Shown here: piece after piece, positions 16,066 through 28,838 of the stretch
How the letters are laid out: each line of letters begins with the position of its first letter
Numbering within the stretch: the stretch's first letter is position 1
From: Candidatus Marinacidobacterales bacterium
GTDB lineage: Bacteria > Acidobacteriota > Vicinamibacteria > Marinacidobacterales > SMYC01
Direction: 5' to 3'
NCBI GenBank assembly: GCA_965237955.1
Contig: OZ250169.1
Coordinates: 7,200,001-7,264,000, forward strand
DNA: 64,000 nt
Made by a program: the position numbers and the translations under genes
The notes under the pieces: generated by a model
What the model saw: the letters and a program-made list of their open reading frames with translations, nothing else
Told to the model about the DNA's origin: nothing
The model's database searches: none

Positions 16066-17495
16066 GTTGTCGACTCCGTGTCCACTCGCGCCGTGTCTGC
16101 CGGCTCTGCCTCCACCGGCTCGAAGAGCTCGGGTTGGTCCACGCCCGCGAAGAACTCTCGATGAAGCCGCCGAACGACTACATCGGCATCGCGCTCGCGC
16201 ACCACGAAGGAGAGGTTCATCTCCGACGCCCCATGAGAGATCGTCCGCACATTGACCCAGTCGAGGGCGCCGAACGCGCGCGCGGCGATGCCGGGAGTCG
16301 AGCAAAGCTCCTCCCCGACGACACACACGATGGCGCAGCCGTGCTCCACGGTCACTTCGGCAAACACCGATAGCTCCTCGACGGCGTCGGACAATTTCTC
16401 GATAGAGTCGACGGTCAAGGAGACACTGACCTCGGAAGTCGAAACGAGGTCCACCGAGACCTCGTGACGATCGAACACCTCGAACATCGACTTCAAGAAA
16501 CCGTGAGCCATCAGCATGCGGTGTGACTTCACGTCGATCACGGTGATGCCCTTCTTCACCGCAATGGACTTTACCGGTACGCCCGCCCGACGCAACCGGG
16601 CGGTGATGGTCGTGCCACTCGCGTCGGGCCGGCGTGAGTTCAGGATCCGCACCGGGATGTTCCGGGCGACGGCGGGCTCGATCGTGGCCGGGTGCAGCAC
16701 CCGGGCACCGAAGTACGCGAGCTCGGCGGCCTCGTCGAAAGACAGCTCCCGAATTTTCCGGCTCTCGGGCACGATCCGATGATCCGCGGTGAGCATCCCG
16801 TCCACGTCGGTCCAGATCTGGATTTCGTCGGCATCGAGTGCCGCTCCGAAAAGCGCGGCCGTGTAGTCCGAGCCGCCCCTGCCCAAGGTCGTTGTCTCGC
16901 CGTCCGGTGTCGCTCCGACGAAACCTTGCACGACGGGGATCTTACCGGCCGCAAGCTCGGGAGCGATGGTCTCCTGGCAGCGCTCGGCGACTCCCGTGAG
17001 CATGGGACGTGCCTTGCCAAAACGCGCGTCCGTCAGCATGACGTTCTTCGCCTCCACCGGCACGACGTCGAGTCCCCCGGCGCGCGCTTTCGCCGTGAAC
17101 AAGAGTACCGACAGCCGCTCTCCGTAGCTCACCATCGCGTCTTGGATGCGCGGGGTGAGCTCTCGCAGCAGAGCGACGCCGCGCACGAAATCCGTGAGCT
17201 CTTCTTCGCAATGCGCGGCCTGCTCCATGACTTCGCCCTGGGCGCGTTGTCCGAGCTCCAGGTCCAGCGCTATCGCACAGTGCTGGCTGACGAGGTCGGA
17301 CAGGATCTGGCGGGCCGCGGCGACATCACCGGAGAGCGCCGTTCGCCCGACGCTGAGGAGGGTATTCGTTGCGCCGGCGACCGCGGACAGCACGACCAAA
17401 GGACCGCGCTCCCGCTCGCCGGCCACGATCTCGACGGCTCGGCATACGGCCGGCGCGTCTTGCACAGACGTGCCGCCAAACTTCATGACAATCAT
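16062..17495 (-). CDS. lysC: Aspartate kinase (lysine-sensitive type with ACT domains)
   Basis: MKFGGTSV, TLGRGGSDYTA, WTDVDG, STSEVSVSLT. Confidence 0.96.
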   Translation of the reverse strand: MIVMKFGGTSVQDAPAVCRAVEIVAGERERGPLVVLSAVAGATNTLLSVGRTALSGDVAAARQILSDLVSQHCAIALDLELGQRAQGEVMEQAAHCEEELTDFVRGVALLRELTPRIQDAMVSYGERLSVLLFTAKARAGGLDVVPVEAKNVMLTDARFGKARPMLTGVAERCQETIAPELAAGKIPVVQGFVGATPDGETTTLGRGGSDYTAALFGAALDADEIQIWTDVDGMLTADHRIVPESRKIRELSFDEAAELAYFGARVLHPATIEPAVARNIPVRILNSRRPDASGTTITARLRRAGVPVKSIAVKKGITVIDVKSHRMLMAHGFLKSMFEVFDRHEVSVDLVSTSEVSVSLTVDSIEKLSDAVEELSVFAEVTVEHGCAIVCVVGEELCSTPGIAARAFGALDWVNVRTISHGASEMNLSFVVRERDADVVVRRLHREFFAGVDQPELFEPVEAEPADTARVDTESTT

Positions 17496-17780
17496 CGACG
17501 TCTAAGGATAGGAAAATTCACACGTGTCTGGCCCCGGTCCGCACGAAATTTCCCCACGGGGATGGGACTGTGCAGTCCGATTGAGTCCTGGTGAGGGTAG
17601 CAGAACTCGAGCAAACAGGGCAAGGCGGCTGAGAGTGTCTCCCGCCGGCACCAGCGCCCTGAGAAGGTTAGACTCTCCCCGCCGATTTTCTTGAGCGCTT
17701 CTCTCTGGACAAGCGTTCGAGGAATCGGGCATACTCGGGACCGAACGAAGACTCTTCCTCGACTGCAAGGAGGTGGTTGA

Positions 17781-18368
17781 ATGGCTCTCGTTAGCCTCGT
17801 TAGCCTCGTTAGATTGTTCGGTGCTCTATGCCTAGCTCTCGCACTTCTTGCGCCTGCCAATCTGGCCGCGCAGGATAAGCCGGTCGTGGTCATCGAGACG
17901 AGCATGGGTGACATCACGGTCGAGCTCAATCGGGCGAGAGCTCCAAAGTCCGTGGAAAACATCCTTTCCTATGTCAACGGCGGTTTTTACGATGGCACGA
18001 TCTTTCATCGCGTTATCTCCAACTTCATGATCCAGGGAGGAGGTTTCACACCCGACATGGAGCGGAAGCCCACTCGGGATCCCATTCAGAACGAAGCGGA
18101 CAACGGGCTGAAGAACCGGCGCGGCACGCTGGCGATGGCCCGCACCGCAGAGATTCACAGTGCAACCGCCCAGTTCTTCATCAACGTCAAGGACAACTCT
18201 TTCTTGGATCACAAAGGGAACAGCTCGCGCGATTATGGATACGCCGTCTTCGGGAAAGTCACCGATGGCATGGATGTCGTTGACAAGATCAAAGACGTCA
18301 AGACAGAAAAAGACGTCCCGACGGAGACCGTTCTCATCAAGACGATCCGGCTTCAGACGGTGGAGTAG
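17781..18368 (+). CDS. ppiA: Periplasmic cyclophilin-type peptidyl-prolyl isomerase
   Basis: [38 protein letters not shown]; signal peptide; AGGAGG RBS. Confidence 0.92.
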
Positions 18369-18482
18369 CGTCGCGGCGCAGGTGTCGCACGACCTGCGTC
18401 CAAGCGTGGCGTGGATGTTTTACGCTCCTTCGCCCGGTCTTGACGCAAGCGTAGGCATCGCGCGTCCCCGCCTCTGTGCCGC

Positions 18483-18845
18483 CTAGTAGCTCAGGTTGCG
18501 GTCGTGCTCCACCGCCAGGTCCGCGTATCGCTTTGGATCCATCCAGCTCGCGTTGACAGCGTTCAAGTCGTCCTCGGAGACCCCCCGGGCCTTCCCGCAG
18601 AGTCCTCAGACGTAAACAGGGATGTTGTGCTCCACCGCGAACTGAAAAAGCTCCTTGAGCGGCGGCAAACTCACCGGAAAGATGCTCTCGCGAATCGCCT
18701 GCTTCATCAGCAGGGTGCCATCTCCGACGACGGCCACACTCACCTGGTGGCCTCCCTCTACGGCACCCTTCGCAACCACAAACGGAAGTCCGGCCCGAGT
18801 GGGATCTTCCGAGCCGTGGGTTGAGGTAATGAGAATCTTGGCCAT
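18483..18845 (-). CDS. DsrE-family protein with in-frame TGA at codon 80 (UxxC), probable selenoprotein
   Basis: AGGAGG RBS; THGSEDPTRA...IPVYV-TGA-GLCGKARGV... stays open to TAG at 18483; hairpin immediately 3' of the TGA. Confidence 0.85.
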
Positions 18846-18940
18846 AGGAAACCTCCTAAGAACCAGATTGTACGAGGAAAAGGCCGGCGAGTGAAAGCGT
18901 GGAATGGCGAGCTTCGTCTTCACCTCCTGGCTGTCCAACC

Positions 18941-19810
18941 TCAGGGCTCGACGTCCAGGGCAACGTCGAGAGCGCGAGCGCTGTGGGTCAAGGCGCCCAC
19001 CGAGATCCGATCGACGCCCGAATCGGCCACGGCCCGAATGTTCTCGAGGGTGATCCCTCCGGAGGCCTCGGTGAGGATCTTCCCGGCACACATTTCGACA
19101 GCGCGCCGCAGGGTGTCGGGGTCCATGTTGTCGAGCAGAACGGCATCGACTCCGAGGAGGAGAAGCTCTTCGAGCTGATCGAGGCTGTCGACTTCGACCT
19201 GGATCGTCGTCAGAGCGCCAAGGCTCTCGCGAGCCCGCTCGACCGCCTGGCGGATGCCGCCGGCGAGCGCGACGTGATTGTCCTTGACGAGCACGGCGTC
19301 GTAAAGCCCGTAGCGGTGTGTTCCTCCTCCCCCCGCGATGACGGCGTATTTCTCCAGAACGCGGAGCCCCGGCGCCGTTTTTCGCGTGCTCACGAGGTCG
19401 GGGGGATTGCGGCCGATGGCCTCCTGAAACGTGCGTGTAGAGGTGGCAATGCCGGAAAGCCGCCCGACGAAATTGAGCGCGGTGCGCTCACCGGTGAGGA
19501 TCGAGCGGGCGTCTCCGGAGAGACGAGCGAGAGGCTCGCCGTACTGCACGTCGCTGCCGTCGGCGGCGAGCGATTCAAAGACGAGATCGGGATCGAGCCG
19601 GGCAAAGACCCGCTCCGCCATGAACAGGCCGGCGAGGCGCCCGGGCTGTCTCGCAACGAGGTGCGCGATCGCCTGCCTTTCCGGCGGCACGATCGCGTTC
19701 GTGGTGATGTCACCTGCGGCCGCCAAATCCTCTCTCAAGGCGTCCTCGACGAGAGTGTCGGTGACGGTCGCGTGAGGCGGCTGCGGGTGCAGCTCGTTCG
19801 GCCTGTTCAT
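18941..19810 (-). CDS. nadC: Quinolinate phosphoribosyltransferase
   Basis: ERTALN, STRKTAPG, HRYGLYDAVLVKDNH, LLDNM, EASGG. Confidence 0.97.
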   Translation of the reverse strand: MNRPNELHPQPPHATVTDTLVEDALREDLAAAGDITTNAIVPPERQAIAHLVARQPGRLAGLFMAERVFARLDPDLVFESLAADGSDVQYGEPLARLSGDARSILTGERTALNFVGRLSGIATSTRTFQEAIGRNPPDLVSTRKTAPGLRVLEKYAVIAGGGGTHRYGLYDAVLVKDNHVALAGGIRQAVERARESLGALTTIQVEVDSLDQLEELLLLGVDAVLLDNMDPDTLRRAVEMCAGKILTEASGGITLENIRAVADSGVDRISVGALTHSARALDVALDVEP

Positions 19811-19820
19811 CGGCCACGTC

Positions 19821-20846
19821 TCACAGCTCGAGCATCCGCTCCACGGCTCGTCGCGCCCGCGCCGCGATCTCCGGGGCGATCTGGACCCGATGCGTCATCG
19901 TCTGGAGCGCGTGGAGAATGTTGGCGAGCGTGATGCGCTTCATATGGGGGCAGAGATTGCAGGGACGGATGAACTCGGTATCCGGGTTGTCGATCTGGAC
20001 GTTGTCGCTCATCGAGCACTCCGTCACCATGAGAACCCGGCCGGGTTTGTGGTCCGAGACGAAGCCGCTCATCGCGGAAGTGGAGCCGACGAAGTCCGCT
20101 TCCGCGAGCACACCGGGTGGGCATTCCGGGTGCGCCAGAATCGTGATGTCGCCGTACTGCTCGCGCGCGCTCAAGAGATCCTCTGCCGTGAAACGCTCGT
20201 GCACCTCGCAGCGGCCTTTCCAGAGGATGACGTCGACCTTCGTCTGCTGGCTCACCCAGCGCCCAAGGTACTCGTCGGGGAGGAAAATGACCCTTTCGGC
20301 GCCGAGCGACTCGACGATCTCAACGGCGTTCGACGAGGTGCAGCAAACGTCACTTTCCGCCTTCACTTCGGCCGAAGTGTTGACGTACGTCACGACCGGA
20401 ACGCCGGGGTAGCGCTCCCTGAGAAGACGCACGTCCGCACCCGTGATGGAGGCGGCAAGAGAGCAACCGGCTTCCGTGTCGGGAATGAGAACCGTTTTTT
20501 CCGGGTTCAAGAGGCTGGCAGTTTCCGCCATGAAGTGCACGCCGGCGACGACGATGACCTCGGCGTCCGTCTCCCCCGCGAGTCGGGCGAGAGCAAGCGA
20601 GTCCCCCGAGCGATCGGCCACGCCGTGAAAGATCTCCGGCGTCTGGTAGTTGTGGGCGAGCACGATGGCGTTTCGCCTGCGCTTCCACTGCTCGATAGCG
20701 TGGATGTAGGGGGCGTGCACGCGCCACTCGAGCGCCGGCACGACGGCTCGCAGTCTCTCGTAGAGCGGCTCGGTCTCTCTCGCAATCTCGGGCGTCCACG
20801 GGGGCGGCCCCAGGGCGACCGCGGACTCGGTATGGCCGTGTGTCAT
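19821..20846 (-). CDS. nadA: Quinolinate synthase
   Basis: [39 protein letters not shown]. Confidence 0.97.
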
Positions 20847-20900
20847 GGTTCTCGTCCCTTCATTATGCTCGCCAAATAAAAAGCGCGCCAACGCGCCTGA

Positions 20901-20921
20901 TTATGCTCTGGAAGAGTATAA
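20901..20921. promoter_or_regulatory. NadQ operator palindrome upstream of nadA
   Basis: TTATGCTC-TGGAA-GAGTATAA fits the ttATRCTC-N5-GAGYATaa consensus; extra half-site TTATGCTC at 20863-20870. Confidence 0.85.
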
Positions 20922-20939
20922 AGTAGCCTGGAGAAGTTG

Positions 20940-21827
20940 TCAACCGCGCCGGGGAAATCGCACTCCGGCACTCGGCCGCTCGCGTACGACATCGCGTCGA
21001 AACCGAAAGATCTCCGCCGGACGTCCGCCCGTTTCGGCAAAGCTGGCGCCGGTGCCTTCTACGAGCCGGCCCGTCTCGAGAAGTCGCCGGAAGTTCTGCT
21101 TGTGCAGGCGCACCCCGGCGAGAGCCTCGACCACCTTCTGAAGCTGGAGCAGCGTGAACGTCTCCGGCATGAGCTCGAAGACGATGGGCCGGTAGCGGAT
21201 CTTGCTCCGCAGGCGGCCGAGCGCGGTGGCGAGGATGCGCCGATGGTCAAGGGCCATTTCGCGGCCGGAGTGCGTTGCCAGGCGCGCCTCCCAGAGAATC
21301 TCGTAACGTTCCAGCACGCGCTCGGGATCCCACGGTGCTTTTCCTTGACCGAAAGCGATCTGGACTCGCTCTTTCCGTTGTTTCGGGGCTTTGTCGACCC
21401 AGCGCCTGAGCCTGGGCAGAAGCTCCTTCTGGAATTGGGAAGTCGGTCCCTCCCGACGATCTTCCCACGGGAAGAACGAGTAGACGTCGAGCCACCCGGC
21501 CGTGCCCTTCACGAGCGCCTCCTCGCGGACGAGGGCGAGATACGCGACGGAGATCACGCGCATCTCTGCGCTGGCGAACGGATCGCGGTCGAGATCGCCG
21601 AACGTGTAGAGCTGCTCGACGTAGCCGAGCTCGAGGCCCGTCTGTTCGCGGACCCAGCCTCGAAGACCGAGCTCGAGCGTCCGGTCCTCGATGGGATCGA
21701 GAGGTCCGAAGGGAAGGGCGGAAATCCCGCTCGGCTCCTGCGTCACGGTGAGCACCCGCGGGCTGTCCCCGGTCACGGCGAGAATCGCGGCGTTGAGCCC
21801 CACGCGGAGCGTGGAATGTCTTCTCAC
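20940..21827 (-). CDS. nadQ: NadQ-family (Nudix-like plus wHTH) NAD biosynthesis regulator
   Basis: LPFGP, GYVEQLYTFGD, DHRRILATALGRLRSKIRYRP, HKQNFRRL, TGGRPA; adjacent to nadA and the operator. Confidence 0.85.
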   Translation of the reverse strand: MRRHSTLRVGLNAAILAVTGDSPRVLTVTQEPSGISALPFGPLDPIEDRTLELGLRGWVREQTGLELGYVEQLYTFGDLDRDPFASAEMRVISVAYLALVREEALVKGTAGWLDVYSFFPWEDRREGPTSQFQKELLPRLRRWVDKAPKQRKERVQIAFGQGKAPWDPERVLERYEILWEARLATHSGREMALDHRRILATALGRLRSKIRYRPIVFELMPETFTLLQLQKVVEALAGVRLHKQNFRRLLETGRLVEGTGASFAETGGRPAEIFRFRRDVVRERPSAGVRFPRRG

Positions 21828-22129
21828 GAAGCCCGGAAACTAGCACGAGCGCCGTCCGCGAGGCAATGTGGGACGATGGTTTGTGCGGCGACAGCCCCGT
21901 CAGGGAGTCTCCGGTGTCTCGTCGAAAGAGATGAGCCAGATGTCCGACTCGTTGGGTGCTTCCGCCACGAACTGTTGGTGGCCAAGTCCTAACCCGCTTG
22001 CGTGCTTGAGCCTGAATTCGAGAGACGCACTTCTTTCGTCCATAGGGCCGACGCGAAGTGAAGAATCTGAGCTGTCTCAACCCCGAGTGTCCGCTGCATG
22101 GAAAAGTCGGTTCCGGCCGCAAGCAAACC

Positions 22130-22300
22130 GAAGCGTCTACGCCGCTCTTCGACGGTCCGCAGCGAGCCCGCAAACCCGAGTGAGGCGTAGGCGGCGACGA
22201 CGGCGACCACAACGGAGAGCCCCACCAGGATCGGGTGATACGTTCCCTGAATCACGAGAGTCTTCTCGGACGCGTCGCGCAGAAACTCCAAATACGGCAC
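22130..22300 (-). pseudogene. MHYT-domain N-terminal fragment
   Basis: GTYHPILVGLSVVVAVVAAYASL, after which similarity ends. Confidence 0.55.
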
Positions 22301-22305
22301 GGGTG

Positions 22306-23451
22306 CTACTTTAGGAAGATGCTCTTGGGGATGTACCCGGTGACGACCTGAGTGAGGTCGACGACCTCGCTGACGCGGAAATCAACGGCGATGCTGGCGA
22401 GCGAGAGTGCCTTGTCCGGCGTGAGCCCCTTTTCTTTCACGAGAAAGTCCACGACCTCCCATGTCGCGTGTCGGGTCGCTCGGTCGAGATCGAGGTCGAT
22501 CCCCATCAGGAGGTAGTGGGTATCCGTTTCCGCGCGCGGGCCCGCCAGGCTTACACCTTTGTGGACAATGAACCGAAAGACGCCGCTGAGCGACTGCTCG
22601 ATCGCGGTGCCGCTCACCTCGCCGTCGCCTTGTGCCCCGTGCGGATCTCCGGTGTAGAAGAGCGCACCGGGGTGGAAGACCGGAAGGTAGACGGTCGTTC
22701 CAGCCTTGAGATCCTTGACGTCCAGGTTCCCACCGAAGGCGCCCGGAGGTCGAGAGCCCTGCACGCCGGGAAGCGTTACTCCGGGTTCGCCGACCACGGG
22801 GTCGGGGGCCACCGCAAGGATACCCATGAAGGGCGCGAGCGGTACCCGGATGTTCTCAGCGATGAAAGCAACTTCACGTCCGTCGACCTCGCCGGTACGA
22901 ATCACGTGCCGCGTCCTCTGTGGGATGTCCAGCAGGGGGTCGTCGGCACGGACACCTGGATAGCTCGACGAGAACACGCCTCCTGTGGCGCTCGTGTTGT
23001 TGATTCCCCAGGGTACACGCGTCTCTATATCGAGAATCTGCACCTCGAGCATGTCACCGGGCTCCGCACCCTCGACATAGATGGGGCCGGTAATCACGTG
23101 GCCGCTGCGACCTTCTCTCGGACGCTCGTCGCGCGAAGCCCAAAAGTCCACAACGTCCTCGAGAATCTCTTCCCGGGGTACTCCCAGCCCGGTTAGATAG
23201 GTTTCGGGATTCTCATTCTGGGTCGCGCCTGCGTGGGTCAGGGTGTCGATGCGCACCGTCTGCCCGGAACGAACGGTTAGAACGGGCTCTTTGTCGATCG
23301 GATACCAACCCCAACTGAGATTCTCCGGTCGCGAGGGCACGTAGTGATCGGCTGCCAGGGGTTCGTCCTGAGCGGCCGTGACGCCAGGAAAGCCGATAAC
23401 GCAGAGCGCGATCACGAGACGACGCGCGCGTCGAGCCCATCCGCGTAACAC
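22306..23451 (-). CDS. Acetamidase/formamidase family protein, secreted
   Basis: HVITGPIYVEGAEPGD, FGGNLD, GDPHGAQGDGEV. Confidence 0.92.
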   Translation of the reverse strand: MLRGWARRARRLVIALCVIGFPGVTAAQDEPLAADHYVPSRPENLSWGWYPIDKEPVLTVRSGQTVRIDTLTHAGATQNENPETYLTGLGVPREEILEDVVDFWASRDERPREGRSGHVITGPIYVEGAEPGDMLEVQILDIETRVPWGINNTSATGGVFSSSYPGVRADDPLLDIPQRTRHVIRTGEVDGREVAFIAENIRVPLAPFMGILAVAPDPVVGEPGVTLPGVQGSRPPGAFGGNLDVKDLKAGTTVYLPVFHPGALFYTGDPHGAQGDGEVSGTAIEQSLSGVFRFIVHKGVSLAGPRAETDTHYLLMGIDLDLDRATRHATWEVVDFLVKEKGLTPDKALSLASIAVDFRVSEVVDLTQVVTGYIPKSIFLK

Positions 23452-27119: not shown

Positions 27120-28838
27120 GGTTCTCCTGTCGTTTCGGGGGATCTGATTTGTGTTGGAGGGCATGGCCTATGGACGCTGCCGCGATTGTGGAAAACGCCG
27201 GAAACTCCGGGCGAGAGAGGCGTTTAGGGAAAGGTTGTGAGCACGTACAAACGTGGAGCGGCGTTTTCCACAATCGCTTGGAAAACGCTTCGCGTTTCCC
27301 ACGAGCGCCCACAGGCCCCTCCTGATATATATACAAGAAAGATTAATTCATATGGGATAAGGAAGGGGGGGCTCGATTAGTGGAGGCTATGGAAAACGCC
27401 CTTCCAGGCTTCGAAGAGAACTCAGTCGTGAGCAAGGTCTGAACGACCAGAACCGTGGGGGCGTTTCCCACAGCCTCGTCTCCCGCTGAGGGGCAGTGGC
27501 ATTTGGTGAGGCCCGTGGGTTGAGAGGGTAAGCCATGTGTAGATGCGCATCGGCGAGAACGCTAGAATCTTTTTTTCCGAAAGAGAAAAGAGCGTTCCCG
27601 CGATGCGCGTTACTACGTTAGTCAACAAGCTCATCGGATTGCAAGGCCTGTGGGTCCGAGGTTTCCACTTCCAGGCGGACAAAGCCAGAGTGGTGGTGGA
27701 TGTAGTACCACGGAGGAGGAAGCCTCTGTGCGGGATTTGCGGACGAAAGGTCCGCAAGAACAAAGATCGCTACAATCGCTACTGGCGGCACTTGGACCTG
27801 TTCGGAGTCCGGACCTATCTTCGCTACTCGATCCGACGAGTGGTATGTCGGCGGTGTGGAGTGGTCAGAGAAAAGGTGCCTTGGGCCGACAAGGGAAGCC
27901 GCTTTACCAAAAGCTTCGAACAAGAGGTAGCGTGGCTGGCACAGAGGACGGACGTCAGCGCCGTAGCGAACTATTTCCGAGTGACGTGGCGTTCGGTGCG
28001 ACGGATCATCCAGCGAGTGGTTGCCGAGCAGCGGGATGAGCGGCGCGAGCTCGATGGATTGCGGGTGATTGGGATGGACGAGATCAGCTACCGCAAACGC
28101 CACAAGTACTTAACAGTGGTAATAGACCATCTCAGCGGCCGGGTCGTCTGGGCGGGAAAGGAGCGCAAGGCCAAGACGCTGCTGCGGTTTTTCCGCAAGC
28201 TCGGACCACAAAGAGCCGCGGAGCTCGAAGCGGTCAGCATGGACATGTGGGAGCCGTACATAACTGTCGTCGGCAAAAAGGCTCCTCAGGCACGGGTGAT
28301 CTTTGACCGCTTCCACATCGTCAAGCATCTGAACGAGGCCGTGGATAAGACCCGGCGCGAGCTGGTGCGCGAGCTCAAAGGGACTGCCCGGCGCAACCTC
28401 AAGAACACCAAGTTTCCCCTTCTCAAGGCCAAACACAACCGCAGCGCGAAAGACAAACGGGTGCTCCGCGAGCAGGTGCGAGCTAATCGTCGCCTCTACC
28501 GCGCCATGCTTCTGCGCGACGACTTCATGGACCTCTACACCTACAAAACCGAGACATGGGCCAAGAAGTTTCTCCGAGGATGGCTGCGGCGCGCTATGAG
28601 CTCGAGGATAGAGCCCGTCAAACGCGCGGCGAAGATGATCCGCAGCCACTTCGATGGCGTCATCGCGTGGGTCACGTGGAGACTCAGCAACGGCCGACTC
28701 GAAGGAATGAACAACAAAATCCGGCTGCTGAGCCACCGCAGCTTTGGACTCCACTCTGCCGAAGCTCTCATCAGTCTCGTCTACCTAAACTGTGGCGGTC
28801 TCACCCTCGAGAGGATCCACTGAAATGGCAGGAGAGGC
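27120..28838 (+). mobile_element. ISL3-family IS, 1719 bp
   Basis: IRL GGTTCTCCTGTCGTTTCGGGGGATC and IRR (reverse complement) GCCTCTCCTGCCATTTCAGTGGATC; 8-bp TSD ATAAATGA at 27112-27119 and 28839-28846. Confidence 0.95.
27603..28823 (+). CDS. ISL3 transposase
   Basis: CGIC/CRRC, IGMDE, SMDMW, FDRFH, EGMNNKIR. Confidence 0.95.
   Translation: MRVTTLVNKLIGLQGLWVRGFHFQADKARVVVDVVPRRRKPLCGICGRKVRKNKDRYNRYWRHLDLFGVRTYLRYSIRRVVCRRCGVVREKVPWADKGSRFTKSFEQEVAWLAQRTDVSAVANYFRVTWRSVRRIIQRVVAEQRDERRELDGLRVIGMDEISYRKRHKYLTVVIDHLSGRVVWAGKERKAKTLLRFFRKLGPQRAAELEAVSMDMWEPYITVVGKKAPQARVIFDRFHIVKHLNEAVDKTRRELVRELKGTARRNLKNTKFPLLKAKHNRSAKDKRVLREQVRANRRLYRAMLLRDDFMDLYTYKTETWAKKFLRGWLRRAMSSRIEPVKRAAKMIRSHFDGVIAWVTWRLSNGRLEGMNNKIRLLSHRSFGLHSAEALISLVYLNCGGLTLERIH

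Follow-up and report, generated by a model that had tools for sequence, protein, structure and literature searches.

A DsrE-like UxxC gene with a probable selenocysteine codon, annotated as ending at its in-frame TGA, in a Marinacidobacterales genome

The minus strand of the DNA analysed here carries, at positions 18483..18845, a DsrE-like gene that in all probability encodes a selenoprotein and that public annotation has cut short. Positions refer to the window, by which we mean the whole stretch of 64,000 nucleotides from contig OZ250169.1 (7,200,001 to 7,264,000) of the Candidatus Marinacidobacterales bacterium assembly GCA_965237955.1. We put at about 92% the probability that this is a 120-codon gene of the DsrE fold in which UGA specifies selenocysteine (Sec), and that its product is a stand-alone UxxC selenol protein of redox or reactive-sulfur chemistry. 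Taken by itself, and judged from sequence comparison, the decoding of codon 80 as Sec appears close to certain. The original prediction had proposed just this, a UxxC gene of the DsrE family recoded for Sec, and it is strongly supported by the Sec machinery of the host, by the conservation of the TGA among relatives and by the domain that is completed when the codon is read through. The result is chiefly an annotation correction for a selenoprotein gene whose family was already known.

The reading frame and the Sec machinery of the host

The frame opens at an ATG (18845-18843), 6 nt behind a Shine-Dalgarno-like AGGAGG (18852..18857, minus strand) that is similar in relatives, and runs for 79 codons to TGA 18608-18606. 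Table-11 ORF calling ends the dsrE gene there, and the public protein of the host genome is this 79-aa form (P0273). Beyond the TGA the same frame continues as GLCGKARGV... for a total of 40 codons to TAG 18485-18483, giving a coding sequence of 120 aa with one in-frame TGA and the motif U80-G-L-C83; the original prediction had described the frame in this way, though without naming the strand, and its coordinates are confirmed. The predicted Sec codon, codon 80 (18606..18608, minus strand) and the U of UxxC, lines up with the leading Cys of the CxxC in homologues and with the first Cys of PDB 3MC3. At Cys83 (TGC, 18597..18599, minus strand), the second residue of the motif, 66 of the 67 distinct relatives with a TGA also have a Cys codon. 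The read-through protein matches Pfam DsrE (PF02635) with 54 bits over residues 3-119, the cut-off being 22.7, and the truncated 79-aa piece scores 24 bits. This gene is the one PF02635 match in the host genome (8.13 Mb, 98% complete). A search with the DsrE-like protein matched no NCBIfam family model, an Rfam scan of 17400-22400 gave no match, and the interval read on the plus strand yielded no meaningful product.

The TGA was checked in contigs of public sequencing runs, not in raw reads, and it is unchanged in the two spanning contigs whose differences are fully accounted for. One (X1 record 5), which may stem from the source sample, has no differences over 18570-18709; the other (X5 record 22) has four, all away from the TGA. 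For X2 and X6, none of the differences listed falls at the TGA, the listing being short of 78 rows. The codon is not an assembly error. Four metatranscriptome contig sets yielded short, low-depth pieces only, among them a 151-nt contig that covers the TGA and contains a single difference.

All four of selA, selB, selC and selD, which the original prediction had named as genes to look for, are present in the host genome. Profile searches gave 544 bits for selA, 366 for selB and 275 for selD, all above cut-offs, and the tRNA set includes a tRNA-Sec (TCA) and one tRNA-Trp (CCA). Host SelD (L007; 4040942-4041856 of the host contig G000:C1, minus strand) has Cys, not Sec, in CGGCAAK; it lies inside a 750-aa open frame and is therefore fused to an N-terminal domain.

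At least eight further Sec candidates lie on the same host contig: 1696754 (+), 3961678 (+), 5216091 (+), 5825260 (+), 5975183 (+), 6707262 (-), 6249356 (-) and FdhA near 6965.5 kb (-). A loose TGA-hairpin filter passes 3.0% of genome TGAs (6408/215,902), and seven of the candidates were chosen by eye among 184 filter hits. The apparent Sec genes that score above model cut-offs are FdhA, with its TGA at the usual place, an ArsC-like gene (selenoprotein model NF041106) and the gene of an NF041057 protein. Candidates resembling GlcF, ResA and peroxiredoxin fall below cut-off, the U of the GlcF-like one lying inside a CxxUxxCxxxC Fe-S motif, and two more, 5825260 and 6707262 (LSPT-U-xx-C), are without an NCBIfam match. 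In several host candidates a short stem capped by a GGU or GGGU loop lies at a comparable distance from the TGA. About 18 of the filter hits on this contig fall in a multi-copy repeat that is probably an insertion sequence (for example at 351978, 365524 and 527363).

Codon 80 among relatives and the hairpin behind it

We examined 121 dsrE loci including the gene itself, of which 118 matched and three did not; the metagenome loci are the best 80 of 164 confirmed matches, and L018, L019 and L024 were left out as duplicates before codons were counted. Codon 80 is TGA in 98 of the 118 loci, TGC or TGT in 19 and ACG in one frame-disrupted copy. The 19 Cys loci bear out the claim that the TGA stands at the first Cys of a CxxC, as do database representatives, 40 of 149 of which are full-length CxxC proteins (taken from the best 150 of 521, with the 4226-aa P0229 left out); another 52 end at this point, 16 have SxxS, 22 are of other types and 19 are partial. 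The next stop follows the TGA after exactly 40 codons in 92 of the 98 TGA loci, five others reaching the locus edge and one distant paralogue having 39. It had been proposed that homologues be aligned past the TGA, and they are conserved there: over 71 distinct genes aligned without gaps, the share of the majority residue is 0.70 ahead of the TGA, 0.67 behind it and 0.18 past the true stop, and within 40 codons past the true stop a further stop is present in 46 of 69.

In the tree (66 rows, 120 columns, with no resolution at its deep forks) the host protein groups with eight other rows in a clade supported at 95/96, the named members of which are Acidobacteriota. Family f41 includes two TGA-form genomes with selA and three Cys-form genomes (99% complete) without selA above cut-off, and its Cys forms are placed among TGA forms; because the three Cys genomes are one genus, the contrast amounts to about one independent event. 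All five other genomes with the TGA form have selA, which says little since selA occurs in 40 of 41 near relatives. Some full-length close relatives have S, G, R or W at position 80 (P0284, P0003, P0285, P0011 and P0010), which may reflect loss of Sec, other codes used in gene callers, or errors. P0284 (SxxS), from a single 723-bp contig, is the sister of the host protein, and P0123, P0141, P0147, P0156 and P0179 form a supported, Cys-less SxxS clade. From such full-length SxxS relatives it follows that the DsrE fold is not always dependent on the motif, and the natural U, C and S variants are easy material for testing the biochemistry of the family. A plasmid search returned only seven records, all distant. 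A second, distant DsrE subfamily was seen in L023 (genome G001), with TLLV-U-IPC; here too a TGA form branches from within Cys forms, which suggests a separate gain of Sec.

If the TGA were a true stop, it would have arisen by nonsense mutation, come from faulty assembly or closed a functional 79-residue protein. Gene callers do give 79 aa here and for most homologues, 116 of 120 database homologues (the best 120 of 221) ending just before codon 80, and the few full-length relatives with a non-Cys residue at that codon also fit. Against this, TGA occupies codon 80 in 80/80 metagenome loci (the best 80 of 164) and 7/7 genome loci with the frame kept behind it; genuine stops vary among TGA, TAG and TAA (37, 22 and 12; n=71) whereas the internal codon is invariant; the structural model described below needs residues 81-119; and the public contigs keep the TGA. 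We therefore regard termination at this codon as highly improbable. Fainter still is the prospect that an alternative genetic code reads UGA as Trp or Gly. The W of P0010 and the G of P0003 at position 80 could be taken that way, but TGA serves as the stop codon of neighbouring genes, nadC among them, the host has its tRNA-Sec (TCA) and a lone tRNA-Trp (CCA), and distant homologues have Cys. Given that 116 of the best 120 of 221 homologues stop before what we read as a Sec codon, the family is much commoner than databases show; the passages of PMC1088965 and PMC1794560 that deal with it first reported it from few sequences.

Sec decoding in bacteria calls on a hairpin behind the UGA, and the candidate that is conserved here is a 5-bp stem, GGCCC/GGGUC, at 18579..18591 (minus strand). 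Its loop, GGG at 18586-18584, lies 19 nt after the UGA, and the stem is extendable to about 18597/18575. In an alignment of 67 distinct TGA windows, from which duplicate or short windows and L023 were left out, the hairpin (positions 18-30 from the U) is paired in 96.7% of cells and has the pattern GGCCC-GKG-GGGUC, the loop being GUG in 59 of 67 relatives and GGG in the host gene. Nine double changes were found (G-C to C-G or A-U, C-G to U-A), and 0 of 500 shuffles scored as high in a control that ignores relatedness; a window slid by +3 had a covariation score of 0.150 vs 0.126, yet only 35.5% of its cells were paired. Among 52 four-fold degenerate columns the four least variable are those of codons 86-89, which make up the hairpin, and two of them are invariant. 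In three close Cys-form genes codons 86-89 are relaxed.

The original prediction had singled out a different SECIS-like hairpin, a CGGG/CCCG stem with an AAGG loop (18578..18605, minus strand), which overlaps the conserved hairpin and competes with it. That structure does have the lowest energy of the possible folds, yet conservation lies elsewhere: its energy is within chance (z -1.33, 21/200 shuffles as stable), it is paired in 74% of cells, and two of its four inner pairs are present in only 44/67 and 26/67 windows. According to the relevant part of PMC13188914, the bacterial SECIS consensus calls for a G among the first two loop nucleotides, with a spacing of 16-37 nt. An AAGG loop 12 nt after the UGA places the minimum-energy hairpin outside that description, to which the conserved hairpin, compared by hand, conforms (GGG loop, 5-bp stem, 19 nt); off consensus, without excess over shuffles and poorly conserved, the AAGG-loop structure was rejected as a SECIS element, and the covarying hairpin at 18591-18579 takes its place as the candidate. 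In the host gene the conserved core has -6.2 kcal/mol and its extended form -9.1, whereas the minimum-energy fold of 45 nt reaches -20.6. Folding without the UGA and the 9 nt that follow it makes the conserved hairpin the best structure (-10.8). A ribosome at the UGA would melt the bases just behind it, which would let the conserved hairpin form instead of the competing fold, and SelB with Sec-tRNA, as in established bacterial Sec decoding, could bind the G-rich loop 19 nt past the UGA. The tight pattern of the hairpin, which was itself derived from the dsrE family, occurs behind a TGA twice in the genome, once of them here. The covarying 13-nt hairpin provides a precise SECIS candidate for the DsrE-like UxxC family.

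The neighbouring nad genes

Upstream of the selenoprotein unit, and outside it, lie nadC (18941-19810), nadA (19821-20891) and the gene of an NrtR-like regulator (20940-21827), all on the minus strand (18941..21827). The spacer from the nadC stop to the ATG measures 95 bp (18940-18846). It contains a sigma-70-like site, TTCACT-17-TACAAT (18867..18895, minus strand), identified by consensus match only. The TACAAT box and the ribosome site are part of the dsrE block and recur in relatives under different upstream genes, the -10 box accompanying dsrE in L010, L011 and L025; the -35 box lies within a nad-derived block. By DNA comparison with the relative G008, the two blocks join at 18884..18887: the sequence 18483-18887 shares 91% identity with G008 contig C4 (L018), and 18884-21232, up to where the fetched locus stops, shares 96% with G008 contig C2 (L158). 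Because the blocks match separate contigs, the spacer is a junction. At the protein level G008 nadC is 97% identical to that of the host, and the dsrE product 90%. A likely promoter of nadA-nadC, a strong sigma-70-like site TTGACA-17-TATACT (11/12), was noted between nrtR and nadA at 20943-20915 (minus strand). Further along the window, a 426-aa ORF at 27543-28823 (plus strand) is presumably an ISL3-type transposase, by its looks.

The gene order invites the view, put forward in the original prediction as possible co-transcription with the Fe-S-dependent NadA, that the selenoprotein is an accessory of NAD synthesis, giving sulfur or redox support to NadA under co-regulation in an nrtR-nadA-nadC operon. 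The distance of 95 bp and the shared strand stood up, and the functional tie to nadA and nadC did not, since linkage is lacking at other dsrE and nadC loci. In favour of an accessory role, a search of the spacer turned up nothing resembling a terminator, so that nad read-through transcription is possible in the host genome; the -35 box of the promoter-like site belongs to the nad-derived block; and no nadB above cut-off was found in the cluster or the genome, which makes the pathway look incomplete. However, nadA, nadC and nrtR queries hit the gene's own locus only among the 121 dsrE loci (at least 1 kb of upstream sequence is present in 59 of 96 Sec loci), and dsrE lies within about 1.5 kb of none of 13 other nadC loci. 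In three of four relatives with a TGA-form gene no nadC was found (74-96% complete), in the fourth, G008, the two genes are on separate contigs, and the spacer itself joins two separate blocks. We consider an accessory role in NAD synthesis quite unlikely, and the nad operon very likely a chance neighbour of dsrE; no selenium link to NAD synthesis is revealed. The 393 ORFs flanking the 96 Sec loci give no pathway clue, their largest neighbour groups, labelled by eye, covering at most seven loci. Among 41 relatives nadC is patchy (14/41), and two other genera (G008 and G012) have the nrtR-nadA-nadC block at 96% identity; from this pattern the block may have been transferred recently.

Fold, proposed chemistry and known relatives

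AlphaFold2 modelling with Cys in place of Sec gave a pLDDT of 97.8 and a pTM of 0.90. Residue 80 ends a strand (77-80) before a helix (81-86), and residues 81-119 supply three helices and two strands. All ten Foldseek matches with E up to 0.001 are DsrE-family chains (3MC3, 3PNX, 1JX7, DsrEFH, TusBCD and 2QS7), the best being 3MC3 (TM 0.84, 28% identity; profile E 1.5e-15). In the model Sec80 would thus occupy the strand end at which DsrE proteins hold their active Cys. We propose that Sec80 attacks a sulfane sulfur or S-S bond, as in a persulfide, polysulfide or thiosulfonate, that Cys83 would resolve the product as a selenenyl-sulfide, and that a thioredoxin-type partner may re-reduce it. 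By comparison with homologues, the active form is probably a homotrimer or hexamer.

DsrE-like UxxC selenoproteins have been described before. The passages on them in PMC1088965 (2005) place them in Sargasso Sea data and one genome, a passage of PMC1794560 names one for Desulfovibrio vulgaris, and catalogue entries in PMC9312934 and PMC13188914 list WP_014524487.1 as PF02635/UxxC with its function uncharacterised. The review PMC13188914, where it deals with such proteins, calls them largely uncharacterised; PMC12013277 holds no DsrE passage, and our literature search found no published experimental study of a DsrE-like selenoprotein. As far as the published descriptions go, the host gene shares PF02635, UxxC, the in-frame UGA, a consensus-fitting downstream hairpin and Cys homologues with this family. 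It has every feature of the family that we tested, and its likeness to the published references (WP_014524487.1 and AACY01486889) is one of family features.

The best match in sequence and structure is DsrE3A (SSO1125 of Sulfolobales, PDB 3MC3; Mcup_0681 of Metallosphaera cuprina), whose first Cys corresponds to U80. In the pertinent passages of PMC4175335 that residue is equivalent to the active Cys of DsrE and is the site of thiosulfonate binding, and DsrE3A has Cys-X7-Cys and works with TusA beside sHdr genes, whereas the host protein has UxxC and the host no TusA. DsrE3 proteins form homotrimers and hand sulfur on to TusA, according to passages in PMC4175335 and bioRxiv 10.1101/2023.12.18.572138. 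SaoD (CD2369 family) is, like the host protein, DsrE-related, with CxxC, but as portrayed in the corresponding part of bioRxiv 10.1101/2022.07.06.499078 it is never a selenoprotein, has an extra invariant Cys and belongs to a SAO gene cluster, whereas the host protein has U80 and C83 only. DsrEFH and TusBCD (PDB 2HY5 and 2D1P) have the fold and the active-Cys position in common with the host protein; they are hetero-oligomers of three paralogues feeding DsrC or TusE, in contrast to the one PF02635 gene of the host. E. coli YchN (PDB 1JX7) has the same fold (TM 0.71), with CKTC vs UGLC at the same strand-helix junction, but is 17% identical and has Cys in place of Sec. We know of no function for YchN.

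What the selenol does is less firmly indicated than its presence. Neither TusA (PF01206) nor DsrC (PF04358) had a match in the 98% complete host genome, and the protein therefore stands outside the canonical sulfur relay. By analogy with its homologues, reactive-sulfur transfer or detoxification has about an even chance of being its function; some activity of another kind is a distinctly weaker prospect. Intermediate between these, and a tentative choice, is peroxide or disulfide reduction, which would make the protein a UxxC reductase and not a sulfur carrier. UxxC is among the thiol-redox motifs in the relevant list of PMC1088965, many homologues are named 'predicted peroxiredoxin' by JGI (an automatic label), TusA and DsrC partners are lacking beside a single PF02635 gene, and twin-arginine-like leaders on paralogues suggest activity outside the cytoplasm. 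Set against these points, the fold is not thioredoxin-like, and all the DsrE-fold proteins characterised in the cited passages of PMC4175335 and bioRxiv 10.1101/2023.12.18.572138 bind or transfer sulfur via the equivalent Cys. Taken further, the same idea would make the large, partner-less DsrE subfamily a group of selenium-dependent oxidoreductases (selenol persulfide or peroxide reductases) rather than sulfur-relay carriers, a speculative but possible reading. The subfamily would then comprise cytoplasmic UxxC proteins, exported leader-bearing forms, CxxC proteins in hosts that lack selA and SxxS proteins devoid of redox activity. If true, hundreds of database entries that stop at residue 79 would conceal an enzyme activity that is new. 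The reading that we retain, a stand-alone UxxC selenol protein of redox or reactive-sulfur chemistry, accommodates either activity.

The leaders were observed in two DsrE paralogues with UxxC or CxxC, L020 (G016) and L021:1417-1857 (G001), which begin with an N-terminal twin-arginine-like leader (MRRGFL...A-H-A). Similar leaders occur in P0129, P0146, P0148 and P0150; the leader label was given by eye, Pfam matching DsrE only. Their N-terminal sequences suggest that the leader-bearing paralogues are exported.
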